The translations under genes were made by a program, and so were the position numbers. From the NCBI GenBank assembly GCA_963696385.1, contig CAVOKF010000005.1, forward strand, positions 1,056,001 through 1,120,000: a DNA stretch of 64,000 nt, given 5' to 3'. The notes below the pieces were generated by a model. That model worked only from the letters and a program-made list of their open reading frames with translations. It did not search any database and was not told the DNA's origin. This document shows positions 12,169 through 62,842 of the stretch, one piece after another. Position 1 is the first letter of the stretch. Each line of letters starts with the position of its first letter. The stretch is from an uncultured delta proteobacterium. GTDB taxonomy: Bacteria; Myxococcota_A; Polyangia; Polyangiales; Polyangiaceae.

Positions 12169-12525
<357 letters not shown>

Positions 12526-23789: not shown

Positions 23790-24185
23790 ATGGAAAACCG
23801 CGTCTTCATTCCCCAGGCCGCGCTCGATCGGTGGATGAGCGACGGATCGGCCGATCTGCGCGAGGGGGAGCTCATCGTTACGGCCGGCGTGGCCGGTGTC
23901 GCGCCGGAACTCGCCTCAGCCTTGGCGCCGGGACGGCGTTTTCGCTTGGCCGAAGCCATTTACATCGTGCGCGAGTTGGCCGCCACGGGTGATCACGACC
24001 TCGTCGGTCGAGTCAAGGGCCGCACCGAGCTCGATGAACTAGGCGCTGAGATCGTGCAAACGTCGATGCTCGTCGGAGACTCCGCCTACGACATCGAGCC
24101 AGGTTGGCTTGGCGTTCCGGCCGTGACGCCCGAGGCCGAGGCCGAAGTGGGCGTCGTCGAAGTGGCGAACGCGGTCGTTACGTAG
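23790..24185 (+). CDS. Hypothetical protein
   Basis: MENRVFIPQAALDRW...DLVGRVK...SMLVGDSAYDIEPGWLG; co-oriented just upstream of ccsA. Confidence 0.65.
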   Translation: MENRVFIPQAALDRWMSDGSADLREGELIVTAGVAGVAPELASALAPGRRFRLAEAIYIVRELAATGDHDLVGRVKGRTELDELGAEIVQTSMLVGDSAYDIEPGWLGVPAVTPEAEAEVGVVEVANAVVT

Positions 24186-24199
24186 CACGATCCGTTGGC

Positions 24200-25021
24200 G
24201 TGACCCTCCAGCTCGCAAACGCACTGTTCGCTGTGACGGTGGTCGCGTACCTGGCTGCGTCGCTGCTATTTGTAGCGGATTTGTTCGGCTGGGCCGGCCA
24301 AGCCAGAACGTGGGCGCCTCGGTTGGTGGCCTTCGGCGTTCCGTTTCACGCCGCGCACATCGTCGTTTGGTCCGTCGTCTTGCACGTCTGTCCGGTCGAA
24401 GGCATTCATTTTTCGCTCAACGTCGCATCGCTGTTGGTATGCGCGGCGTACCTGGTCGTGCGGCGGCGCTATCGCGTGGACGCGGTCGGCGCGTTCGTCG
24501 CCCCGCAAGCGCTCGTGTTCCTGCTCGCATCGCGTTTCGTGGGGCCGGTCGATGCCGAACCGCGGTTGAGGAGCGCCCTCTTGCCGTTCCACGTGATCAG
24601 CAACCTTCTCGGGATCGCTCTCTTTACGCTGGCGTTCGCCGCGGCGGTCGCCTACTTGCTGCAGGAGCGCCGCCTCAAGCAAAAGTGGCTTGAGGCGGTC
24701 GAGCGCCTTCCCGCCGTCGACGCGCTGGATCGCGCCGAACACCGCTTCCTCGCAGCGGGTTTTCCACTGCTCACGATTGGCGCGCTGACCGGGACGATTT
24801 GGGCGCGCGAGGTCGAGGCGGGCGGTGCCGCCGACATCGCCCGGGCCGTGCTCTCGTACGTCTCCTGGGCGCTCATCGGAGTCGTGCTGCTGCTGCGCGC
24901 TTCGGCCGGGTGGCGCGGTCGGCGCGCAGCCGTGGGAACCATATTGTGCTTCGGATTGACGGTGCTCGTGATCGTCGCATACTTGGTCAGGAGCATCACC
25001 GGCGCGGGCGGACACGCATGA
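24200..25021 (+). CDS. ccsA: Cytochrome c assembly protein CcsA/HemX family
   Basis: About 8 TM segments, LPFHV, YLLQERRLK, GFPLLTIGALTGTIWA, GWRGRRAA; ATGA overlap with hemA. Confidence 0.8.
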   Translation: MTLQLANALFAVTVVAYLAASLLFVADLFGWAGQARTWAPRLVAFGVPFHAAHIVVWSVVLHVCPVEGIHFSLNVASLLVCAAYLVVRRRYRVDAVGAFVAPQALVFLLASRFVGPVDAEPRLRSALLPFHVISNLLGIALFTLAFAAAVAYLLQERRLKQKWLEAVERLPAVDALDRAEHRFLAAGFPLLTIGALTGTIWAREVEAGGAADIARAVLSYVSWALIGVVLLLRASAGWRGRRAAVGTILCFGLTVLVIVAYLVRSITGAGGHA

Positions 25022-26382
25022 TCCTGGTGGTGGGTCTCTCGCATCGTACGGCGCCTCTCGACGTTCGCGAGCGTCTGGCCGGGGGTCCGGCGGCACTTCC
25101 TGCGGTGCTGGCCCGGTTGGCTGCGCGCTCGGAGCTCGAGGAGTCGATGTTCTTGTCGACCTGCAACCGCGTCGAGGTCGTCGCGCGCGTCCGACGAGGC
25201 TTGGCGGGGCTGGATGGCGCGCGTCGCGCGATTCGCGAGGAGCTTGCCCAGCAAGGGGGAGCCGTCAGCGGGGACCATCTCGCGCCGTATTTGTACGAAA
25301 AGCGCGACGACGATGCCGTGCAGCACATCTTTCGCGTGGCGGCGAGCCTCGACTCGATGGTCCTCGGCGAGCCGCAAATCCTCGGTCAAGTGAAGGACGC
25401 GTACGACGCTGCAATCGCCGCAGGCACTCTCAAGGGGACGCTCGCGCGTTGCGTCAGCCGTGCCTTCTCGGTGGCCAAACGCGTTCGCACCGAAACGAGC
25501 ATCGGCGTGGGGACGGTGAGCATTTCGAGCGTCGCCATCGATCTGGCCCGGCGCATTTTCGGCGATCTATCCGACCGAACGGTACTGCTCATCGGCGCCG
25601 GGGAGATGGCGGAGGCAGCCGCGAGCAGTCTGGTCAAGGGGGCGCGAACGCTGCGCATCTGCAACCGGAGCTTTGACCGAGCCGCGTCACTCGCGAGTAC
25701 GATGCAAGCGTCGGCCGTGCCATGGGGCGAACTCGCGGCGGAGCTCGTCAGCGCCGACGTGGTCGTCGCGAGCACGGCCAGCCCGACCTACGTCGTGACG
25801 GTCGAAATGGTCAAACGAGCGATGAAGGCGCGCAAGGGTCGAACGCTGCTTTTTGTCGATATTGCGGTGCCTCGCAACGTCGAGCCGGCCGTTCATGGGA
25901 TAAATAACGTGTACGTGTTCAACGTTGACGACCTCGAGCAAGAGGTTGCACGTGGCCTCAAGGCGCGACATGCGCAGGTCGAAGTCGGCGAGCAGATTGT
26001 CGCCGAAGAAGTCTCCCGATTCTTTGCCTGGCGGCGAGGACTCGAAGTGCAGCCGACGGTCGTGGCCATGCGGTCGAAGGCGCGTGCGGTGTTTTTTTCG
26101 GAGTTCGAGCGATCGCTCGGTGGCCGCCTCAAGCACCTCGCCGAGGGCGACCGGGCGGCACTGACTCAAATGCTGGAGAGCGCGCTAAACAAGCTGCTTC
26201 ACACCCCGACCACCCGGCTGAAAGCGCGTGCCGCCGAAGGGGAGGACGGGATGGAGCTCGCGGCAGCCATGCGCTTTCTCTTCGACCTGCAGGAGATTGC
26301 GGTGGCCAAGGAACACGAGGAGGGTGAGGTGGCCGCGACTTCTTTTGCCTCAGCCGAGGGCGACGAACGGCTCCCTCACTGA
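25018..26382 (+). CDS. hemA: Glutamyl-tRNA reductase
   Basis: VGLSHRTAP, LSTCNRVE, SLDSMVLGEPQILGQVK, IGAGEM, DIAVPRNVE. Confidence 0.97.
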   Translation: MILVVGLSHRTAPLDVRERLAGGPAALPAVLARLAARSELEESMFLSTCNRVEVVARVRRGLAGLDGARRAIREELAQQGGAVSGDHLAPYLYEKRDDDAVQHIFRVAASLDSMVLGEPQILGQVKDAYDAAIAAGTLKGTLARCVSRAFSVAKRVRTETSIGVGTVSISSVAIDLARRIFGDLSDRTVLLIGAGEMAEAAASSLVKGARTLRICNRSFDRAASLASTMQASAVPWGELAAELVSADVVVASTASPTYVVTVEMVKRAMKARKGRTLLFVDIAVPRNVEPAVHGINNVYVFNVDDLEQEVARGLKARHAQVEVGEQIVAEEVSRFFAWRRGLEVQPTVVAMRSKARAVFFSEFERSLGGRLKHLAEGDRAALTQMLESALNKLLHTPTTRLKARAAEGEDGMELAAAMRFLFDLQEIAVAKEHEEGEVAATSFASAEGDERLPH

Positions 26383-26589
26383 CGGCTGTGGCGAGGGCGC
26401 CAGCTAACGCGGTTGGCTCTTGGCACGGGCCGTGGCATCGGTGGTCTCGCTGGATCGCGGCCCGCGTGCGGGGTCCGGCCGCATTTCGTGATCCATGGAT
26501 CTCCGGGCGAGGGGAGCCGGCGTGACGATCGGAGCGCGCGCCGGAGGGGGTCGTCCTCTTCTCTCGACGGCTATGACGCACTTGTGGGC

Positions 26590-27495
26590 TCAGGCGAGTC
26601 GTCGACCCAAGGCGAGCCCGAGCGCCTCGGCATGCGTCTCCGATGCGGGCCACGGGACGGTTCGTTCGGCCTCGCGGTAGCGGCCGCCGTCCAAATCGGC
26701 CACGAATGCACGCAGGCGAATGTCGTCTCCCACGCGATCGGCGTGGGCTCCCAGGGGCATCTGGCAGTCGCCGCCCAGGGAAACGAGAACACCGCGTTCC
26801 GCGGCTACGCACGTCGCCGTCACGGGGTCGTGGAATCGACGAAGGAGAGTTCGCACACTCACGCCGTCGTCACGACATTCGATAGCCAACGCGCCCTGCC
26901 CGGGAGCCGGCAAGGATAGCGGCAGGGCCAGTACCTCGGTCTTGCGGTGTCCAAGGCCCAGCCGGACCAACCCGGCGCCCGCCACCACGATCGCGTCGTA
27001 CTCTCCCGAATCGACCTTGCGCAGACGCGTGTCGACGTTGCCACGCAGCGACACGATCGTGATGTCGGGGCGCAGGCGCTTCAGTGCCACCGCGCGGCGC
27101 AAGCTCGACGTTCCAATGCGAGCTCCAGCCGGCAGGGCGTCGAGCCGCCCGTGGCGCGGGGCGATGAGAACGTCGTGTGCGTCTTCGCGCGCAGGAACGC
27201 ACGTCACGACCAATCCTGGGGGAAGCTCGGCGGGGACGTCTTTCATCGAGTGCACGGCGAAGTCCGCGCGGCCGTCGAGGAGGGCTTCCTCGATTTCCTT
27301 GACGAACAGCCCTTTGCCCCCAACCTCCGAGAGCGGCCGGTCCTGGATCCGGTCCCCGCTCGTGACGACTTGCAGCTCGGTGGTCTCGACGGATGGTTCG
27401 ACGGCTCGGAGGCCCGCCACGAAAGCGCGGCACTGCGCTAGCGCCAACGCAGACCGCCGGGTCGCGACGGTGAGGCTTCGCTCGGAGACTCTCAT
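26590..27495 (-). CDS. hemC: Hydroxymethylbilane synthase (porphobilinogen deaminase)
   Basis: ATRRSALALAQ, GGKGLFVKEIE, VHSMKDVP, GTSSLRR, RGNVDTRL, GGDCQMP. Confidence 0.97.
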   Translation of the reverse strand: MRVSERSLTVATRRSALALAQCRAFVAGLRAVEPSVETTELQVVTSGDRIQDRPLSEVGGKGLFVKEIEEALLDGRADFAVHSMKDVPAELPPGLVVTCVPAREDAHDVLIAPRHGRLDALPAGARIGTSSLRRAVALKRLRPDITIVSLRGNVDTRLRKVDSGEYDAIVVAGAGLVRLGLGHRKTEVLALPLSLPAPGQGALAIECRDDGVSVRTLLRRFHDPVTATCVAAERGVLVSLGGDCQMPLGAHADRVGDDIRLRAFVADLDGGRYREAERTVPWPASETHAEALGLALGRRLA

Positions 27496-45075: not shown

Positions 45076-46131
45076 GTGCCCCGGATCGCCCAAATACTCG
45101 AGCGCGGCGTTGCGGGCCCCCGGCCGTGGCACCGCGGCGTCTCCCGTCCGTGGCTGTGGACCTTCGGACGCAGCGTCGCGCGGAGACTGGAGTGGCCCCC
45201 GCACGTGCGCGTCGTTGCCGTCGGAGGTGCGACTCTCGGCGGATCGGGCAAGACGCCGCTCGCCATCGCCTGTGCGATGGAGCTTTCGGCCGTGGCTCGA
45301 ACGATCTTGGTGGGGCATGGCTACCGAGGTGCGGTTCGCCGCACTCGGTTCGTCTTGCCGAGCGACGCGCTCGGCGCGGTGGGCGACGAGGCGATCGTGG
45401 CTGCGCGCGACCTCGAGGCCTCGGGTCTGGGGGCGCGGGTCGTTGTGGGACCTACACGATCGGCGGCGATGGCGTGGGCCGCCGGCAAAGCGGACATCCT
45501 CGTGCTCGATGGCGTGTGCCAGACGGCGCCCACTCGAGCGTCGCTGGCGCTACTCGCCGTCGATGCCGCCAAACCATGGGGGAACGCGGCAGCCTTGCCG
45601 CCGTTCGGAGACTTGCGTGCGCCCGTCTCGATGTTGCTGGAGGCGTGTGACGCGATCGTGCCGATCGGGGATCGCGCCGGGCCGTCGCTCGGCTTCGCGC
45701 AACCGGGTCGCACGATGCCGATTTGGCCCGCCAGCGTGGAGTCGCGGGGTGCCTGGCTGCACGCTGGGCGCTCTAGCACCGCTCCTCGCTCGGAGCAGCT
45801 CCTCCTGTCCTGGGAGACCCTTCGGCCGTTGCGCGTGGGCCTCGTGACGGCGATGGCCAGGCCGGACCGCGTCGTCCGTGACTTGGCACTTCGCGGTGTG
45901 CGCCCGTGCGCGGTCGTGTGCGCGGCGGACCACGGGCCTGTGGGCGCCGGCGCCGTTCGCGCCTGCTTCAAAAGAGCGCAGGCGGAGCGCGTGGAGGTCT
46001 GGCTATCGACCCCGAAGTGCGCTTTGCACGTGGATGGCGCGAGGTTGGGGGCCCCGGTGGCGGTTCTGGAGTACGGTCTCGGACTGCCTCCCACGCTTGC
46101 GGCACTCCTTCGGGCGATCGCCCTGCCTTGA
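45076..46131 (+). CDS. lpxK: Tetraacyldisaccharide 4'-kinase (divergent)
   Basis: VGGATLGGSGKTP, GHGYRG, VGDEA, VLDG, LPPFGDLR, DH, TPKC. Confidence 0.75.
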   Translation: MPRIAQILERGVAGPRPWHRGVSRPWLWTFGRSVARRLEWPPHVRVVAVGGATLGGSGKTPLAIACAMELSAVARTILVGHGYRGAVRRTRFVLPSDALGAVGDEAIVAARDLEASGLGARVVVGPTRSAAMAWAAGKADILVLDGVCQTAPTRASLALLAVDAAKPWGNAAALPPFGDLRAPVSMLLEACDAIVPIGDRAGPSLGFAQPGRTMPIWPASVESRGAWLHAGRSSTAPRSEQLLLSWETLRPLRVGLVTAMARPDRVVRDLALRGVRPCAVVCAADHGPVGAGAVRACFKRAQAERVEVWLSTPKCALHVDGARLGAPVAVLEYGLGLPPTLAALLRAIALP

Positions 46132-46239
46132 CCGGCGGGGGTGCGAGCAATAGCCTCAATGCCTACGAGGCATTGCCCAGAATGCCCGCGGGCGGCTCTG
46201 CACGTCGCGCCGCAGCAACCGGATCGTGAGGCGACGCGC

Positions 46240-47145
<906 letters not shown>

Positions 47146-47169: not shown

Positions 47170-48483
47170 ATGACCGAACGACTCCCTGAAATCCGAATCA
47201 TGCCCCCAGGACCGGGGTCTCGTGCGATGGTCGCTCGCCTCGCTGCCGTCGAGTCACCGTCGGTCGACGCCAGGCGGGAAGCGCGCGCGCAAGCGAGCGG
47301 CTCGGATCAGACGGCGATTGTCTACGCGTCCGCGTCGGGGACCAACGTCCTGGACGTCGACGGCAATTGCTACGTCGACCTGGCCGCAGGCTTCGGTGCG
47401 TTGCTCCTGGGTCATGTGCCGGCCTCCGTAGCGCGCGCCGTCGAGGCGCAGGCAACCAGTCTTTGGCTCGCGCTCGGCGACGTCTTTGGGTCTGACGCGA
47501 AGGTCGCACTTTGCGAAAGGCTTGCGAAGATCCATCCGGCGCCGGGTGCCCGCGTCATGCTCGGATCGAGTGGGGCAGACGCCGTGACGGCCGCGCTGAA
47601 GACCGCGGTCATCGGATCCGGGCGCGGCGGCCTGATCGCGTTCGATGGCGCGTATCACGGGCTGTCGCACGGCCCTCTGGCCGCGTGCGGGCTGCGCCCC
47701 GAATTTCGCGAGCCGTTCTCGACGCAGCTCAACCCGCACGTGTGGTTCGCGCCCTATCCGGTCGACGAGTCCTCGCTCGATCGCTCGCTGCAGGTGGTCG
47801 AGGAGGTTCTTCGGCGGGGCGACGTCGGGGCCGTTCTCGTCGAGCCGATCCTTGGACGAGGGGGGTGTGTCGTGCCACCCTCCGGCTTTCTGCCTGCCCT
47901 TCGCGCGGCATGCGACCGGGCCGACGCGTATCTGGTCTGCGACGAGGTCTGGACCGGGCTTGGCCGTAGCGGGGCCTGGCTTGCGAGTGCCGATGCGGGG
48001 GTCGTCGCCGACATCGTATGTCTGGGCAAAGGCCTCGGCTCGGGACTGCCCGTGAGCGCTTGCATCGGCAGCGCGCGCGCCATGCAGGCGTGGGGCAAGC
48101 ACGGGGGCTCGACGATCCACACGGCGACCCACTTCGGCGCCCCTCTCGCGTGCGCCGCGGCAATCGCCACGCTCGACACGCTGCAAGCTCAGCAGCTGCC
48201 GGAGCGCGCGCGTGTCGTCGGAGAACGCTGGCAAGCGCTGTTGCGCGACCGGGTCGGAGGGCGAGGGGTGCGCGTCGTTCGTGGCCGCGGTCTGATGATC
48301 GGGGTCGAGATCGAGGGGGGCTCCGTCCGTGCTCTTCGCGTGGTCCGCCGCTTGTTGCAGCGCGGGTGGATCGTCTTGACAGGAGGAGCGGAGGGCGACG
48401 TGCTCACCCTCACCCCGCCGCTTACGGTCGATGAAGCTTTGCTCGAAGCCTTTGCCGATGCGCTGCGCACGTGCCTGGCATGA
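47170..48483 (+). CDS. Class III (omega/GABA-type) PLP aminotransferase
   Basis: DVDGNCYVD, SGADAV, AYHG, VEPILGRGG, DEVWTGLGRSG, GKGLGSG, RGRGLMIG. Confidence 0.92.
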   Translation: MTERLPEIRIMPPGPGSRAMVARLAAVESPSVDARREARAQASGSDQTAIVYASASGTNVLDVDGNCYVDLAAGFGALLLGHVPASVARAVEAQATSLWLALGDVFGSDAKVALCERLAKIHPAPGARVMLGSSGADAVTAALKTAVIGSGRGGLIAFDGAYHGLSHGPLAACGLRPEFREPFSTQLNPHVWFAPYPVDESSLDRSLQVVEEVLRRGDVGAVLVEPILGRGGCVVPPSGFLPALRAACDRADAYLVCDEVWTGLGRSGAWLASADAGVVADIVCLGKGLGSGLPVSACIGSARAMQAWGKHGGSTIHTATHFGAPLACAAAIATLDTLQAQQLPERARVVGERWQALLRDRVGGRGVRVVRGRGLMIGVEIEGGSVRALRVVRRLLQRGWIVLTGGAEGDVLTLTPPLTVDEALLEAFADALRTCLA

Positions 48484-49586
48484 CCCCGATCCAAGCCCGG
48501 AGCGAGTCGCTTCACCTCAGGGTGCGAGCGATCGTGCAGGCGTTCGAGCAGAGTCGGGCGGCACCCGAGCCATTCGATGCGCTCGCCGCCGACCTTGTCC
48601 GGTTTCAAGCCGCGACCGTCCCGGGCTACCGGCGCCTGTGTTTGTCTCGTGGCATCGATCCCCAGGCGGTCGTGCGAGCCGAGCAGGGACCCGCTGTGCC
48701 TACCGATGCGTTCAGGTTGGCGCGAGTCTTCGCCTTCGCCGACACGGACGCCGCGTTCGTGTTCCGGACGAGCGGCACGACGATCGGTGCGCGCGGCGCC
48801 CATGCCATGCGACACACCCGAACCTATGACGCGGCGGCACTCGCGTTCGGCGGGGCGATGCTCGCGCGCGACCTGACCCTCCCCGTGCCCGTCGTGACGA
48901 TCGCTCCTAGCGCGTCGGAGGCGCCCGATTCCTCGCTGACGCACATGTATGCCCTCTTCGCTCGTGAGTTCGGGCCGTCGAGGGCTGGCGAAATGACGTT
49001 CATCCATTCCGGGTCGTTGCAGGTCGAGGCGCTCAGGCAATGCGTTGCCGCGCTGCGCCCGGATGTTCCGGTCATTGTCCTTTCGACGAGCTTTGCCCTT
49101 GTACACTTGCTTGATGCCCTGGGTGAGGAGACTCTGGCCCTGCCCGCGCGAAGCCGCGTGGTGCAGACGGGTGGCTTCAAGGGAAAGTCGCGGGAGGTGG
49201 CGGCTTCCGAGCTCCGCCGGGGCCTGGCTCGGTGCTTCGCCGTGCACGAGCGGTCGGTCGTCTGCGAATACGGAATGACCGAGCTTTCGAGTCAGTTCTG
49301 GGAGGCCACCCTCGTCGACGAAGGGGCCGCGCCCGGGGTTTACTTCGAGCCGCCTTGGGCCCGCGTCGTCCCCGTCGATCCCGAGACGTTGGTGCCGGTT
49401 TCTCATGGGAAAATCGGGATTGCCCGGATCGAAGACTTGGCGAACGTGGATAGCGCCTGGGCCGTTCTGACCCAGGACCTCGTACGCCGTGTTGCCGGCG
49501 GATTCGAGCTCATCGGTCGCGCGGCAGGGGCGCCGATGCGGGGCTGCTCGATCGCTCTCGACGAGATGCTATCGGCGTCGCCATGA
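48480..49586 (+). CDS. LuxE-type acyl-protein synthetase
   Basis: FRTSGTT, QTGGFKG, EYGMTELSSQ, DLANV, TQDL, C-terminal GRA....RGCS; ATGA overlap with the aminotransferase. Confidence 0.88.
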   Translation: MTPIQARSESLHLRVRAIVQAFEQSRAAPEPFDALAADLVRFQAATVPGYRRLCLSRGIDPQAVVRAEQGPAVPTDAFRLARVFAFADTDAAFVFRTSGTTIGARGAHAMRHTRTYDAAALAFGGAMLARDLTLPVPVVTIAPSASEAPDSSLTHMYALFAREFGPSRAGEMTFIHSGSLQVEALRQCVAALRPDVPVIVLSTSFALVHLLDALGEETLALPARSRVVQTGGFKGKSREVAASELRRGLARCFAVHERSVVCEYGMTELSSQFWEATLVDEGAAPGVYFEPPWARVVPVDPETLVPVSHGKIGIARIEDLANVDSAWAVLTQDLVRRVAGGFELIGRAAGAPMRGCSIALDEMLSASP

Positions 49587-49605
49587 TTTGCGGCGGGTCC
49601 GCGTG

Positions 49606-50644
49606 ATGCGAACGCTCGACCAGCGGGTGGACGACGTGCGGCGGCTGCTGCGCGCCGCGCAGCGCGTGTACGACGCACGTGCGGCGATCGTTCCGCAAAT
49701 TGCGCGCTCGACAGGGCTGACGCAGGAAGGGGTCGAGCTTGGATTCGAATCGCTCGAGCGACAGGCATCCGATGCGGATCTGCGCACCCTGGTAGGGGGA
49801 GCCGGTGACGCAGAGCGGGTGCACGTCGTGCTCTCGGCGAACGCATTTGTCGCGCCACTCCGGGCTCTCGCCCTCGCTCGTGCCACGTCGACTCGGGTCA
49901 GTGTGCGCCCATCTCCAAGGGAACCGAACCTGACGCGTGCGCTCGTCGAGATGTCGGGCGACGACGCGATTGCGATAGTGGACGACCGCGACCTGTCTCG
50001 CGTCGATCGAGGCGAGATCCACGTGTACGGTCGCGACGAGACCATCGCCGCTGCGCGCGCATGCGCTCGCCCCGGTATCGTCGTCCGCGAGCACGGAGCG
50101 GGCCTCGGAGTCGCCATCGTCACACGCTCCGCGGCCGTCGAAGCCGCGGCCGAAGCTTTGGCGGTGGACATTGTTCTTTTCGATCAGAGAGGCTGCCTCA
50201 GCCCGCGCCTCGTTCTCGTCGAGGGCAATGCCGACCGCGGCGAGCGGTTCGCCTCGGCGCTCGACGAGCATCTCTCGGCATGGGGCCGTCGTGTACCCCG
50301 CGGCGCGCTCTTCGAAGCCGAGAATCGCCGATGCCGTCGTTTGGCGCGAGGCGCTGGCGTTTGCCGGCCGACTGTGGCGCGGTGCGTGTCACGACGTCGC
50401 GCTGGCGCCGCCTTCAGGTCCGCTGGCGATCCCGCCGCCGGGACGTTGCGTTCACGTGCTGACGGCGCGCTCGCTCCCGGATGTCGCGGCTCAAATCGCG
50501 CCCGTCGCTCGCTTCGTCGTCGCCGTTGGCACGGACGATCCGAGAGCGGTCGAGGGCGTGGCGGCGCCCGGCGCGCGAGTTTCTCTCTTGGGACGCATGC
50601 AGCGTCCTCCCCTGGACGGTCCGGTCAATCGCCGCCCATTTTGA
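49606..50644 (+). CDS. LuxC-type acyl-CoA/acyl-protein reductase (frameshift near 50323)
   Basis: VLSAN, VYGRDETI, HGAGLG, DIVLFDQRGCLSP, then after removing one A ...RVSLLGRMQRPPLDGPVNRR. Confidence 0.8.
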
Positions 50645-54337: not shown

Positions 54338-56159
54338 GTGCCAGCGAAATTGACGCCGCCCTCTCCATCGACCGCCAGGACGGCGTACGGCCATTGCATC
54401 GGCGGGGCATTCCTCGCGTTCGCCGCCGTGGCTCTTCCGGCTCGCGCGCAGCAGCAAACGTTTCACCTCGATCGGCTTGAAGTTCCAGGAGCCCCCGACG
54501 ACGGCGTCGTGATCTTCCGCCCGGTCACGGAAGAGCGTCCGACGTTCTACGCCCAGTTGGCGCTCGGTTTTTCGCTGGATCCCCTTCGCACGAGCGACAT
54601 CACCAAGAACGAAGCCGCCCAGCACGCGTCTGCACCCGACGTCGTCACGACCCAGCTGTCGACCTATCTGTCGGCGGGGTTCGAGCTCTTCGATCGGATG
54701 ACGGTCGGCGCCACATTTCCTGCCGCTTGGATTGAAACGGGCAACCAGCCCAACTACCCGGTCGGCGTCTTCGGCGGCAATACCGCCCCGACCGCGTTCT
54801 CGACGACCGGCCCTGCTCTGGGCGACACCCGATTCGACCTGCGCTTCGTGGTCTGGCGAAGTGACGTCGCGGCCCTCGGCGCCCAAGTCAGCGTGTTCGT
54901 TCCGACCGGGGCCGGATCGTCGACGAATTTCGGCGGCGACGGCTCTCAACTCGAATGGATGCCGATGGTGTCCGGTGAATGGACGCCTCGGAGATTCCCG
55001 CTGCCGTTGACGTTCGTAGCGAATACCGGGTTCGACTTCCGCCACGACAATTCCATCAATGATCCGGTCGGGTACGGCGGTCTGCCAAGCGGACTCGGCA
55101 TCGGCGATGAATGGCGTTGGGCGGTCGGAGCCTTGATGCCCGCCCTGTCGCGACGCGTCCGGCTCGGGCTCACGATATTCGGGCAGACAGGAATCAAGAG
55201 CGACTCGATCATCGGCGACACTGCCTTCACGGCTCAAAACACTCCCATCGAGTGGAACGCGGAGGGTCGGTTCAAGCTCCCGTCCTTCTTCGAGATCGGT
55301 CACTGGTTCGCTGGGGCCAGTGTCGGGACGCGCATCACCGGAGGTTATGGCGCCCCGGATCTGCGCGTGGTCGCCCTCATCGGCATGAGCTTGCCCATCG
55401 AGGAGTCAAAGGCGTCGTCGCCGGAGGCGCGGCTGCGCGAAAACATTCGCGGCTCGCTGAAGGACACCGACGGCGATGGCATTCCGGATGAGCTCGACGC
55501 TTGTCCGACCCAGCCGGAGGACCACAAGGACCCCGATCCGATGGACGGTTGTCCGAGTTTGCCCGATCGCGACGGCGACGGCATCCCGGATGAGTACGAC
55601 AAGTGCCCGGACGAGGCTGAGGACAAGGAAGGCGTCGAGGATGCCGATGGTTGTCCGGAACGCGACTCCGACGGCGACGGCATTCCGGACGCGAAGGATG
55701 CGTGCCCACGGGAGCCCGGCGAGCCGGACCCCGATCCCAAGAAGAACGGCTGCCCCGAAATTCATCCGCTTGGAGGGCTCGGCGGTTCGCGTTCTGCAGC
55801 AAGTGCACTTCCAGACGGCGTCGGCCACAATCCTGCCCGACAGTTTTCCGATGCTTCACGAAATCGCTCAGCTGCTAAAGGCCAATCCGGACATCAAGAA
55901 GGTGCGGATCGAGGGGCACACGGACAATCACGGCGCAGCCGCCTACAACCTGGACTTGTCCAAGCGCCGCGCTGCCAGCGTGCGCGAGTGGCTCGTCGAA
56001 CACGGGGTCGAGCCGGATCGTTTGGAGAGCGAAGGGTACGGCCTCACGCGGCCGATCGCGTCGAACGATACGGACGACGGTCGCGCTCAGAACCGACGTG
56101 TCGAGTTCAACATCCTGCAGCAAGGCGCGGAGGGGGGTCACGGCGGCTCGTCCCCCTAG
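54338..56159 (+). CDS. Outer-membrane protein: beta-barrel-like N-domain, TSP3 repeats, OmpA C-domain (frameshift near 55755)
   Basis: Removing one C joins KNGCP to KFIRLEG...IEGHTDN...NLDLSKRRA..V...GYG..RP...NRRVEF, stop at 56159. Confidence 0.85.
55463..55756 (+). repeat. Three thrombospondin type-3-like Ca-binding repeats
   Basis: D.DGDGIPD..D.CP...E.......DGCP-type unit repeated three times. Confidence 0.85.
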
Positions 56160-57340
56160 AGCCCCTTGGGCGGCACTCGTTCTTGCCGTGGCGTCATCGG
56201 CTGGCGACGTCCTGGCTCAGGGCGATTCGGTCGACGGCGCTCCGCCCCCCCCTTGGGCGAGCGCCTCGTCGTCGCCCGTGCCCGTTGATGATGCGTCGCT
56301 CGCCGATCTCGAACGCCAAGCGTTGCATCGATGCGGGCCCGGCGACGCTGGGCTCGTGGCCGCCGCGCGATGGATCGTGGCGCAGAAGCTGCGCGGCGCA
56401 CCGATGCCGGAGCTCGATGCGATCGCGTTCGCGCAACGCGCATCGGGCGAGCCTCACCCCTGGTCTCGGGCGTGGGCCGAAACGGCGCGCGTCTTGTCGC
56501 CGCCCGGCGCCCTCCGGGGGCTGGATGAGTGGCTCGGCCAACGGAGTCGAAATGCCTTGCGCCGGTGTGGGGCCGCGACGGGCGCTGGACCGGGCGGCAC
56601 GCGGACGCTCGCCGTCATCGTCGTCGACGCCTTGGCGGATTCTGACTCCGCTGCCGACCCGGGTTCGCGTGGGACAGTGGATTACGGTGGACGGCCGGCT
56701 CCGCACCCACGCGGATGGAGCCAAAGTCATCGTGCTCGGGCCGAGCGGAGCGCCGCAGCCGCTACCGACGTCGTTCGACGGGGCGGTGCTCCGCGCTAGC
56801 TTCGCGCCCGACCGGGCCGGCGAGTTTGCTATCCAGGTGATGGCTGACCTACCGACGGGCCCGCGCCCGGTGCTCGAGGCAAGCGTTTTCGCCGACGTCG
56901 ATCCGCCGCGACGCCAATCGGACGCGGCTGCCCCCGGAGAGGATCGCGCCGCGTCTCTGTCGGACGATGCCGCGATCGCCGAGATGGTCGGGGCGGCCCG
57001 CTCGTCCGCCGCGCTTCCGAGCATCGTCCGCGACTTCCGTCTGGACGCCCTCGCGCGCGACCACGCTCGCCGGATGGCAGACGGGCAAGAGCTCGCGCAC
57101 GATGTCGGCGACGGCGACCCGATCGATCGCATGCGCGGGGCCGGACTCGACGCGCGCGATGCCGGCGAAAATGTCGCTCATGCCCGCAACGTGCTCCTCG
57201 CTCACCGCGCGATGTGGGCCAGTCCTTCACACCGCGCGAACACCCTACGCAGGGAATTCGACCGCGCCGGGTTTGCCGTGGCGCGCGACGAGCACGGTGA
57301 CGCGTGGGTCGTCGAATTGTTCGCAGGCGGGCTGCGGTGA
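56098..57340 (+). CDS. Secreted CAP/SCP-domain protein (frameshift near 56641; start uncertain)
   Basis: ORF 56098..56799 joins the 3' frame after removing one T (DALAD-LTPLPTR). C-terminal LDALARDHARRM, AHD, GENVA, WASPSHRAN, WVVELFA. Confidence 0.75.
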
Positions 57341-60874: not shown

Positions 60875-62842
60875 TTGGAGAAGAGGCACATTCCGGAGGT
60901 TGGGCACCCTGCGCGACGGTATCCTCCGAAGGTGGGCGGTCCCGCGCGGCTCATTCGCGGCACAGTCGCGGTCGGCGTCTCGGCCGCCGCAATGTCGCTC
61001 TGTCCGTCCCGCGCGCTCGCGCAATCGACCCCCAATGCCGTCACGAACGGCGATGGGTTCGACACGCACCTCTTTCGCCCGGCGATGGACTCGAAGGGGC
61101 TCTTCACCGTCAACGGCACGGACGTGCTCGGAGCAAAGGAGTTCAGCGTCGGTCTCGTCATGGACTACGGGCATGCCCTGCTTCGGACACCCGGAGGCGG
61201 GCAGCTCATCGACCACTCATTTCAAGGAACGCTCCAGGGCAACTACGGCATCCTGAATCAGCTGGTGGTCGGTCTCGATGTGCCCGTCGACCTAGAGTCC
61301 GGCGGCGCGACGACCGATCCCGAATACACGGGCCTGTGGAGCTCCCAGAAGCTCGCATTCCAAGGCATCGGGTACCTCGGCGCGCATGCCAAATGGCGCA
61401 TCACCCGGGTGGAGCGAGGTTTCGGCGTCGCGGTGGGGTTGCAGCTCGGCGTCGGTCTGGGAGACGCCGCGGCAAACGCCGCTGCCGACGCCGGGTTCTT
61501 CTATTGGCCCATGCTGATGCTGGAGAAACGGTTTGGGCGGACGGGCCAGTTTCGGATCGCGCTCAACGGAGGCTATAGGGGGCATTCCGCGAGCACGACG
61601 ACGTTGCCGCTGCGCCACGGCACTTTCTCGGACGGCAGTCTGTTTACCTACGGCGGCGGCCTGAGTTTTCGGGTTCTGGAGTCGGTCGATCTTGTCGCGG
61701 AGACGTACGCCACGGTTCTGCTGGGGGACGCGGATCCAGGCGTCAGGATGAGCAACGAAGTCGTCGGCGGGCTCAAGCTCTTCGTCGAACGCAACTCGTA
61801 CATGATGATCGGTGCCGGCCCACGATACACGAATGGCTTCGAGACGGCCGACCAGCGGGTGTTTCTGGGTTTCGTCTTCGAGCCGTCGATCGGCGATCGC
61901 GACGGTGACGGGATCAAGGACGACGTCGACAAGTGCCCCGACGATCCCGAAGACTTCGACGGTTTCAACGACGAAGACGGCTGCCCGGATCCCGACAACG
62001 ACAATGACGGCATTCCCGACGTGGACGACCGGTGCCCGAACATCCCGGAAGACCGCGACGGCTTTCAGGACGCGGACGGCTGTCCGGAGGGCAAGGACGG
62101 CGATCGCGACGGCGACGGCATCCCGGACTCGAAGGACAAGTGCCCGGACGAACCCGAAGATCGCGACGGCTTCCAGGATGCCGACGGGTGCCCCGATCCG
62201 GACAACGACAACGACGGAATTCCGGACAAGATGGACCAGTGTCCGAATGACCCCGAAGACAAAGACGGATGGCAGGACGCCGATGGCTGCCCGGATCCGG
62301 ACAACGACCACGACGGCATTCCCGACGTGAAGGACAAGTGCCCCAACGAACCCGAGACATACAACGGTTTCGAGGACGAGGACGGATGTCCAGACACGGG
62401 AAGTGTCATTATTCAGGACAACAACATCGTCATCCTCGACAAGATCCAGTTCGCGTACAACTCGGCAGAGATCCTTCCGGCGTCGGACAAGATCCTCGAC
62501 GCCGTCGCGACGACGCTGTCGCACCACCCGGAGTTTGCTCTGATCGAAGTGGCGGGGCACGCCGATGAACGCGGGAGTGACGACTACAACCTGCGGCTCA
62601 CACAAGATCGAGTGAACTCGGTCGTGCGCGCACTCATCGCTCGGGGGCTTGACCACGTACGATTGCGCAGCAAAGGGTACGGCAAGTTCTGCCCTCTGGA
62701 CATGGGGCATAGCGAAGCCGCGTGGGAGCAAAACCGGCGCGTCGAGTTCAAGATCGTCAAGACCCAGGACGGGCCGACGGGTGTCGAACTCGGCTGCCCG
62801 AATGCCACCCAGCACGGCGTCGCTCCCGAACCGGTTCCCTAG
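60875..62842 (+). CDS. Outer-membrane protein: beta-barrel-like N-domain, TSP3 repeats, OmpA C-domain (TraB-like architecture)
   Basis: FRPAMDSKG N-domain, five TSP3 repeats, IQFAYNSAEI, VAGHADERG, NRRVEF. The true start may be somewhat downstream. Confidence 0.88.
   Translation: MEKRHIPEVGHPARRYPPKVGGPARLIRGTVAVGVSAAAMSLCPSRALAQSTPNAVTNGDGFDTHLFRPAMDSKGLFTVNGTDVLGAKEFSVGLVMDYGHALLRTPGGGQLIDHSFQGTLQGNYGILNQLVVGLDVPVDLESGGATTDPEYTGLWSSQKLAFQGIGYLGAHAKWRITRVERGFGVAVGLQLGVGLGDAAANAAADAGFFYWPMLMLEKRFGRTGQFRIALNGGYRGHSASTTTLPLRHGTFSDGSLFTYGGGLSFRVLESVDLVAETYATVLLGDADPGVRMSNEVVGGLKLFVERNSYMMIGAGPRYTNGFETADQRVFLGFVFEPSIGDRDGDGIKDDVDKCPDDPEDFDGFNDEDGCPDPDNDNDGIPDVDDRCPNIPEDRDGFQDADGCPEGKDGDRDGDGIPDSKDKCPDEPEDRDGFQDADGCPDPDNDNDGIPDKMDQCPNDPEDKDGWQDADGCPDPDNDHDGIPDVKDKCPNEPETYNGFEDEDGCPDTGSVIIQDNNIVILDKIQFAYNSAEILPASDKILDAVATTLSHHPEFALIEVAGHADERGSDDYNLRLTQDRVNSVVRALIARGLDHVRLRSKGYGKFCPLDMGHSEAAWEQNRRVEFKIVKTQDGPTGVELGCPNATQHGVAPEPVP
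61895..62394 (+). repeat. Five tandem ~33-aa TSP3-like repeats
   Basis: D.D.DGI.D..D.CP..PE...G..D.DGCP repeated five times; also visible as ~99-bp DNA repeats. Confidence 0.9.

Follow-up and report, generated by a model that had tools for sequence, protein, structure and literature searches.

Which carboxylic acid would be activated, reduced and aminated by an operon that couples a class III aminotransferase to a LuxE-like and a LuxC-like enzyme? Such an operon lies in a stretch of 64,000 nucleotides from an uncultured delta proteobacterium of the family Polyangiaceae in the Myxococcota (assembly GCA_963696385.1, contig CAVOKF010000005.1, positions 1,056,001 to 1,120,000 of the forward strand; hereafter the window), where three consecutive genes encode an aminotransferase dependent on pyridoxal phosphate (PLP), a LuxE-like adenylating acyl-protein synthetase and a LuxC-like thioester reductase, together referred to as the trio. 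An earlier note on this DNA, made from the sequence alone, had suggested a compact acid-to-aldehyde-to-amine route leading to a long-chain or other primary amine. The chemistry of that suggestion stands, given three families with conserved catalytic residues, whereas a long-chain fatty acid is disfavoured as the substrate by a distribution that is the mirror image of queC and queF, by operons shared with queE and queD, and by the spread of a housekeeping function. Comparison across genomes points to another acid, and the trio is probably a QueC- and QueF-independent route from 7-carboxy-7-deazaguanine (CDG) through 7-formyl-7-deazaguanine to 7-aminomethyl-7-deazaguanine (preQ1).

CDG is the product of QueE, and preQ1 is the precursor of the tRNA base queuosine, a near-universal tRNA modification. 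CDG is a carboxylic acid of which preQ1 is the aminomethyl analogue, and the two are connected in the canonical pathway by QueC, which converts CDG to preQ0 with ATP and ammonia, and by QueF, which converts preQ0 to preQ1 with NADPH. QueD, QueE, QueC and QueF figure as the only de novo route to preQ1 in the excerpted text of PMC11130926.

A gap in the queuosine pathway

The genome to which the window belongs is assembled in 8 contigs with a completeness of 96.4%. It encodes QueD (TIGR03367, 103 bits against a cut-off of 89.25), QueE (TIGR04349, 261.8 bits, E 4.4e-78, which lies under the cut-off of 300), Tgt (425 bits), QueA, whose gene adjoins tgt, and QueG. No match to QueF was found in this 96.4%-complete genome, and its sole match to QueC is a spurious 23-bit PP-loop stretch within an asparagine synthase. 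Because queD, queE, tgt, queA and queG are found and queC and queF are not, CDG appears to be made and preQ1 to be used without the two known enzymes that intervene. A genome profile scan returned one LuxE match (31 bits) and one LuxC match in the whole genome. None of the trio proteins matches QueC (PF06508) or QueF (PF14489), and the proposal is that the trio replaces these enzymes in function without belonging to their families. The genome combines all features of the proposed module, namely the aminotransferase signature described below, the LuxE-like and LuxC-like partners, and queD, queE and tgt, with queC and queF not found.

Complementarity with queC and queF across Myxococcota

The distribution of these genes was examined in one draw of 301 Myxococcota genomes, the same for all gene searches, and was cross-tabulated by hand. 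LuxE-like matches are present in 244 genomes, QueC in 54, QueF in 58, Tgt in 298 and QueE, searched with one subtype model, in 215. LuxE-like genes occur without QueC in 239 genomes and QueC occurs without a LuxE-like gene in 49, the two being mutually exclusive in 288 of the 301; five genomes hold both and eight hold neither. None of the 43 strong QueF matches (E 1.3e-19 or better) comes from a genome with a LuxE-like gene, and the five genomes with both a LuxE-like gene and QueC have no QueF match. Counted by family, LuxE-like genes against QueC amount to 22/23 against 0/23 in f1, 18/18 against 0/18 in f9, 24/26 against 0/26 in f26 and 18/18 against 0/18 in f40, and to 0/5 against 5/5 in f19, 0/3 against 3/3 in f21 and 0/5 against 5/5 in f38. 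Switches between the two occur within f17 and within f41 as well, and the window's own class shows them between its orders.

The aminotransferase was also followed where it is unlinked. Family f26 has luxE and luxC without a linked aminotransferase, and an orthologue with the full signature is encoded elsewhere in 9 of 11 genomes, at 497-516 bits against at most 284 for paralogues; one of the two genomes without the orthologue is also among the eight that hold neither a LuxE-like gene nor QueC. Family f47, which has QueC and QueF, possesses aminotransferase paralogues only (at most 311 bits, 13/13 genomes). It is fairly likely that about four fifths of the sampled Myxococcota (239/301), together with lineages of other phyla, make preQ1 without nitrile chemistry, QueC and QueF both being replaced by a carrier-free carboxylate reductase of the LuxE/LuxC type and a dedicated PLP aminotransferase.

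Thermus thermophilus, which served as a control genome, gave a weak LuxE match and possesses Tgt, QueA and QueG; QueC was not found there at E 1e-20, nor QueF at E 1e-6. It possibly offers a cultured example of this route.

Operons with queE and queD

A profile built from LuxE-LuxC fusion proteins was run against metagenome contigs, and the best 80 loci were kept. The aminotransferase gene lies beside luxE in 10 of the 80 and, in seven of those 10, queE is directly upstream of aminotransferase-luxE-luxC, often at a distance of 6-9 nt. In all four of the queE-linked loci that were scanned, the upstream gene exceeds the QueE cut-off (300 bits), reaching 303-313 bits. Two further loci have queD directly behind luxC, one of them with a 4-nt overlap. 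The aminotransferases of the queE-linked loci exhibit 43-46% identity to that of the window and carry its active-site signature; three Myxococcota orthologues from other families exhibit 45% identity in the same alignment.

Linkage within Myxococcota is loose. There luxC is followed by queD at a remove of one gene (about 2 kb) in seven Sorangium loci, including that of So ce56; queD is also nearby in Minicystis, and queE lies 4.4 kb from the trio in one genome. The gene between luxC and queD in Sorangium cellulosum So ce56 (L093:6401-8014) encodes a 537-aa protein that combines a GAF domain with the N-terminal part of a PtsP/enzyme I-like protein.

Catalytic residues and family membership

The PLP lysine of the aminotransferase (K287, within CLGKGLG), which the earlier note had described as intact, is invariant in 77 of 77 distinct orthologues, as is the cofactor-binding aspartate D258. 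The closest solved relatives are gamma-aminobutyrate (GABA) aminotransferases, at 187 bits. Enzymes of the GabT type are taken here to hold the substrate carboxylate with arginines R141 and R398 and to have E211 as the glutamate switch (E. coli GabT numbering). In an alignment to the solved GabTs 4atp and 4ffc, the two arginine positions are occupied by Leu165 and Thr413 and the glutamate switch by Arg230. The motifs YHGL165, FR180xPF and EPxxGR230GG are invariant across the same 77 orthologues and position 413 is never arginine, and the enzyme falls outside the GabT/ArgD/OAT-type, 2-oxoglutarate-dependent class III aminotransferases, given that both arginines and the glutamate switch are replaced. 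R35, R36, R180 and R230 are invariant arginines specific to the family, and relocated arginines in class III aminotransferases have precedent in the excerpted text of PMC9418295. All 69 NCBIfam models that match the aminotransferase do so under their cut-offs, the best at 259 bits against 552, and none of the trio belongs to a named equivalog of that collection. This fingerprint sets the enzyme apart in a distinct, uncharacterised specificity group and does not name the substrate.

A profile of nine LuxE-like orthologues matches the solved LuxE 7xc6_E at E 2.5e-25. K234, R347 and C356 of the LuxE-like protein align with K238, R355 and C364 of LuxE, and all three are invariant in the 9-sequence alignment, as are the TSGTT motif and the C-terminal RGC cysteine that the earlier note had picked out. 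In LuxE, the Lys238/Arg355 pair and Cys364 are assigned to adenylation and thioester formation by cryo-electron microscopy, according to excerpts of PMC9157457. The cysteine of the LuxC-like DQRGC motif aligns with the catalytic, acyl-accepting cysteine (DQQAC) of the solved LuxC 7xc6_A, in a weak pairwise match (E 0.034), and the intact LuxC-like orthologue P0125 matches PF05893 at E 1e-20 (74.5 bits, profile positions 94-380 of 401). Neither protein belongs to the equivalog of its luminescence counterpart, since the LuxE-like protein reaches 29.4 bits against the cut-off of 550 for true LuxE (NF052244, long-chain-fatty-acid--protein ligase) and the LuxC-like protein 25.2 bits against 750 for true LuxC (NF052251). 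Look-alikes of the LuxE-like protein in the ESM Atlas comprise generic LuxE clusters only.

A proposed route from CDG to preQ1

The proposed mechanism is modelled on the solved LuxC-LuxE complex, with CDG replacing myristate and transamination added as the last step. The LuxE-like enzyme would adenylate the 7-carboxylate of CDG in an ATP-dependent reaction and transfer it as a thioester to its own C-terminal Cys356, and the flexible LuxE tail would then deliver the acyl moiety to the cysteine in the active site of the LuxC-like enzyme (DQRGC). The LuxC-like enzyme would reduce the CDG thioester with NAD(P)H to 7-formyl-7-deazaguanine, which the PLP aminotransferase, by means of Lys287, would convert with an amino-acid donor to preQ1. 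Tgt would insert preQ1 in tRNA, and QueA and QueG would complete queuosine. Substrate, amino donor and nucleotide cofactor are all inferred, as is every step of the chemistry. In the excerpted text of PMC13740343, 7-formyl-7-deazaguanine is known as a stable compound and is set free by QueF mutants; it would be a true intermediate of the trio, whereas in QueF it is a hydrolysis by-product of mutants only. The earlier note had also allowed for a reverse run of the three enzymes in amine catabolism, which is unlikely given that the LuxE step uses ATP in the forward direction, as is known for the family and described in part in PMC9157457.

LuxE and LuxC are likely to act as one unit, because LuxE-LuxC fusions prevail among 54 longer relatives. 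The same 54 include no fusion of LuxE to a Que protein, the only fusions being LuxE-LuxC and LuxE-zinc alcohol dehydrogenase. A LuxE-LuxC fusion is present within Myxococcota in genome G162 (L159:4603-7254), as an open reading frame (ORF) of 883 aa that was also recovered as the 773-aa protein P0158. In P0130, P0133, P0134, P0138-P0140, P0153, P0155 and P0156, one of which is labelled Chloroflexota, a LuxE-like domain is fused to a zinc alcohol dehydrogenase with no LuxC, and these fusions may be an acid-to-alcohol variant.

Architecture and conservation of the locus

The trio closes a head-to-tail run of five genes on the forward strand (Table 1), which is followed by the convergent genes jag/khpB and yidC. 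The architecture described in the earlier note is confirmed in its main points. The aminotransferase and luxE genes are coupled by an ATGA overlap, in which the luxE ATG occupies 48480-48482 and the aminotransferase TGA 48481-48483, and luxC begins close behind luxE with a GTG at 49603, the gap to the luxE stop being 16 nt where about 20 had been given. A Pfam scan of 102 of the 107 ORFs of at least 215 aa in the window, the five left out all overlapping genes of the operon region in other frames, gave no match to luxA, luxB or luxD, which agrees with what had been noted before.

Table 1. Features of the window, with positions numbered from its first nucleotide
Feature	Position	Strand	Evidence or remark
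lpxK	45076-46131	+	Pfam LpxK 1.7e-29; first gene of the same-strand run; neighbour only
FHA-GGDEF gene (diguanylate cyclase-type)	46141-47145	+	Pfam GGDEF 5.5e-48, FHA 8.4e-18; ends 24 nt before the aminotransferase gene
Class III (PLP) aminotransferase, 437 aa	47170-48483	+	Pfam Aminotran_3 (PF00202), E 1.9e-84, 284 bits
LuxE-like adenylating acyl-protein synthetase, 368 aa	48480-49586	+	PF04443, 32 bits against a cut-off of 24.9
LuxC-like thioester reductase, 346 aa without the extra base	49603-50644	+	PF05893, E 2.4e-18, 66.6 bits against a cut-off of 21
Extra base A that breaks the luxC frame	50323	+	Most likely an assembly error
Transfer-messenger RNA (tmRNA) gene	12169-12525	-	164 bits
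Haem cluster	24104-27495		Cytochrome c assembly protein, hemA, porphobilinogen deaminase
hemA	24799-26382		Within the haem cluster
Large proteins with thrombospondin type 3 repeats	54338-57340 and 60875-62842		One with a CAP domain, one with an OmpA domain

The synteny of the trio across Myxococcota, which the earlier note had proposed as a check, is borne out. The LuxE-like gene is present in 39 of 41 relatives (a tally that includes the unpublished genome G010) as well as in the 244 genomes of the phylum-wide draw. The aminotransferase gene is directly beside luxE in 20/20 loci of the order, in 66 of 75 informative Polyangiales loci, a set that takes in Sorangium cellulosum So ce56, Polyangium, Minicystis and Labilithrix, and in 13 of 17 loci of the phylum's other families; luxC follows luxE in 72 of 73 informative Polyangiales loci. 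The flanks outside the trio vary by family, so that the conserved unit is the trio alone. The neighbour lists of relatives are incomplete, their genes having been picked by a crude filter on GC content at third codon positions and sometimes on the wrong strand. The trio is a single-copy, near-universal housekeeping unit in Myxococcota.

Of 69 informative Polyangiales loci, 54 have the FHA-GGDEF gene before the trio; the gene shows 60-99% identity and is far better conserved than the adjoining enzymes. It is away from the trio in 16 of 17 loci of the phylum's other families, one of which (L162) has an unrelated response-regulator GGDEF gene downstream, and it is probably a conserved neighbour in Polyangiales that is not part of the pathway. 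Linkage to lpxK is restricted to the genus and close relatives. Five families of the order (L023, L024, L025, L027 and L030) have a tRNA-Phe(GAA) gene no more than a few kb away from the trio, and in L030 it sits 35 nt upstream of the aminotransferase gene. tRNA-Phe carries no queuosine, and its position looks like conserved synteny of a tRNA outside the queuosine set. One family encodes, just upstream of the trio, a luciferase-like monooxygenase (Bac_luciferase, 1.8e-56) together with an additional class III aminotransferase (L147:1548-4007).

The frameshift in luxC

The frameshift reported by the earlier note is present in the window at position 50323, as one extra A relative to a 93%-identical relative (G003) whose luxC is a single frame of 346 codons. 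Without this base, the luxC of the window is also a 346-codon frame, with 314 of 346 residues identical to G003; its two halves are 89-91% identical to G003 and show no other defect. Logan contigs were available for 4 public runs from 4 studies. All three runs that cover the position omit the extra base, one of the three possibly being the window's own sample, and the fourth run does not reach it. Because every covering run omits the base and the frame is thereby restored, luxC is best treated as intact, and the extra base is most likely an assembly error.

Weighing of the proposed route and its alternatives

Several observations weigh against a route from CDG to preQ1. The support for it is comparative throughout, and related genomes are non-independent, so that the two-by-two table of LuxE-like genes and QueC overstates the number of independent events and also contains the five genomes with both and the eight with neither. 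A divergent QueF-II-like gene is present in 13 LuxE-like genomes of families f43, f48 and f55, all without QueC (G107, G166, G186, G196, G216, G236, G260, G265, G285, G290, G305, G310 and G315). Its product is a protein of 193-219 aa with an N-terminal extension (for example L167:6516-7175), which scores 79-84 bits against an NCBIfam cut-off of 86.9 in the three genomes scanned, and the gene is away from the trio in the four loci checked. The QueE model gave few or no matches in some LuxE-like families, namely f27 (0/6), f39 (0/2), f40 (3/18) and f33 (2/9); in f40, a divergent QueE-like radical-SAM gene that falls under all cut-offs is present in 13 of 15 genomes.

The genomic context adds further points of this kind. 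The trio never directly adjoins a que gene within Myxococcota, and que genes are present in the retrieved flanks of only 9 of 117 loci. A search of the window and 26 loci with Rfam returned no preQ1 riboswitch near the trio, the only elements found being tmRNA and tRNA genes. Six Labilithrix-like loci (L053, L054, L056, L057, L062 and L069) encode an alpha/beta hydrolase of about 350-450 aa whose gene immediately precedes luxE and, in five of them, separates it from the aminotransferase gene. Among the metagenome loci, 70 of the 80 have no adjoining aminotransferase, and 69 have neither an aminotransferase nor a que gene, the remaining one having a weak QueD-like match only. Given these 69 loci, the LuxE-LuxC family as a whole is not devoted to preQ1 and surely acts on other substrates too.

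This heterogeneity, together with the separation of the trio from que genes within Myxococcota, would be expected if the trio converted some other small carboxylic acid to an amine, such as a precursor of a polyamine, a cofactor or an amino acid, and if the anticorrelation with queC and queF reflected shared ancestry and not function; the invariant arginines R35, R36, R180 and R230 could then bind a carboxylated substrate. Such a substrate is nevertheless unlikely, in that the complementarity is found even within a family (f17 and f41) and extends to the unlinked aminotransferase, that queE and queD are joined to the operon in independent contigs, and that the alternatives tested are already covered by canonical hemA, hemL, argC and proA. 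A route to 5-aminolevulinate, in which glutamate or 2-oxoglutarate would be reduced and transaminated, was ruled out by the presence of hemA, which lies in the window, and hemL; a replacement of ArgB/ArgC or ProB/ProA was ruled out by the presence of two argC-like genes and proA. The argC-like genes (G000 C8:356364-357401 and C4:176486-177481) both score over cut-off, and one of them may belong to a LysW-type pathway.

A very unlikely reading is that the LuxE-like and LuxC-like enzymes reduce a long-chain fatty acid to a fatty aldehyde, from which the aminotransferase makes a primary fatty amine destined for some lipid or secondary metabolite, as first suggested for this locus. The only characterised LuxE-LuxC pair reduces myristic acid, as far as the excerpts of PMC9157457 go, and in Streptomyces the LuxC-superfamily reductase TabE and the omega-transaminase TabA make dodecylamine, as described in part in bioRxiv 10.1101/2025.08.11.669332. 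A fatty substrate would also suit an aminotransferase that lacks the GabT-type arginine for a distal carboxylate and has an invariant Leu165, the hydrolase of the six Labilithrix-like loci, which is lipase- or thioesterase-like on weak DUF676 and palmitoyl-thioesterase matches, and the upstream lpxK of this genus. It predicts, however, neither the mirror distribution with queC and queF nor the linkage to queE and queD. The trio has no conserved neighbour gene for an acyl carrier protein, a thioesterase or a fatty-acid synthase, its flanks being family-dependent, and no luciferase is encoded in the window; the two Lux-like proteins are far under the cut-offs for true LuxE (29 against 550 bits) and true LuxC (25 against 750 bits), and a single copy in about four fifths of the phylum fits a housekeeping function better than a specialised lipid. 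Aeromonas flagellin-glycosylation islands, where luxE and luxC lie beside fatty-acid genes, were set aside as a different context.

Finally, the earlier note had recognised that its proposal would fall if luxC were a true pseudogene, and a decaying operon of this kind in an organism that salvages queuosine precursors from its environment is extremely improbable: the window does carry the +1 frameshift and transporters are well known to salvage preQ0 and preQ1 according to excerpts of PMC11130926, but the read-derived contigs of all three covering runs, from three studies (one run perhaps being the source sample), omit the extra base, luxC is intact in the relative G003 and free of further defects in both halves here, and queD and queE, needless for pure salvage, are retained.

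Relation to known systems

The proposed CDG-to-preQ1 route would begin and finish at the same compounds as canonical QueC and QueF, would likewise stand between QueE and Tgt, and would cost as much ATP and as many reducing equivalents overall. It would differ in being built from unrelated families, in passing through neither a nitrile nor preQ0, and in taking its nitrogen from an amino acid via PLP and not from ammonia. The same acid-aldehyde-amine logic is known from cascades of carboxylic acid reductases (CARs) with omega-transaminases, and from pairs of an NRPS (non-ribosomal peptide synthetase) reductase and an aminotransferase, such as MxcG/MxcL in myxochelin B. CARs and NRPS reductases are multidomain and phosphopantetheine-dependent, whereas the carrier in the trio would be the LuxE-like enzyme's own C-terminal cysteine.

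The closest solved system, the LuxC-LuxE fatty acid reductase of Photobacterium phosphoreum (PDB 7XC6; PMC9157457, in excerpt), comprises the same two families with apparently the same mechanism. LuxE's Lys/Arg pair and acyl-carrying cysteine are conserved, as is LuxC's acyl-accepting cysteine, and the genes are adjacent, and fused in relatives. The trio is distinct in having no luxA, luxB or luxD, in its very low similarity, in its coupling to an aminotransferase, in a shorter LuxC (346 aa against 477 in the solved 7xc6 chain) and in its substrate, which is probably CDG and not myristate. The pathway for the tail of tambjamine BE-18591 in Streptomyces albus (TabQ, TabJ, TabE and TabA; bioRxiv 10.1101/2025.08.11.669332, in excerpt) likewise employs a LuxC-superfamily thioester reductase and then a class III omega-transaminase to convert an activated acid to a primary amine. 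In a comparison by description only, it differs in that its acyl group, a C12 fatty acyl, is held on a carrier protein, no ATP-dependent LuxE is involved and the genes belong to a secondary-metabolite cluster and not to a housekeeping unit spread over a phylum.

The earlier note knew of no characterised pathway with this gene combination, and no published account of a LuxE/LuxC/aminotransferase route to preQ1 was found in the literature searched, a search that left most subscription journals outside. Added here are the complementarity across Myxococcota, the way the aminotransferase behaves when unlinked, its active-site signature and a resolved frameshift.

Implications

If the trio does convert CDG to preQ1, CDG would be the first non-lipid substrate for LuxE/LuxC-type reductases, and the three enzymes would offer nitrile-free enzymatic access to 7-aminomethyl-7-deazapurines. 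Carriers of the trio would be without preQ0-dependent processes. The route would account for genomes in which queD and queE persist without queC and queF, and genomes now classed, for want of queC and queF, as salvagers of queuosine or as defective in the pathway would instead be de novo producers, which would change the prediction of queuosine capacity from genomes and microbiomes.

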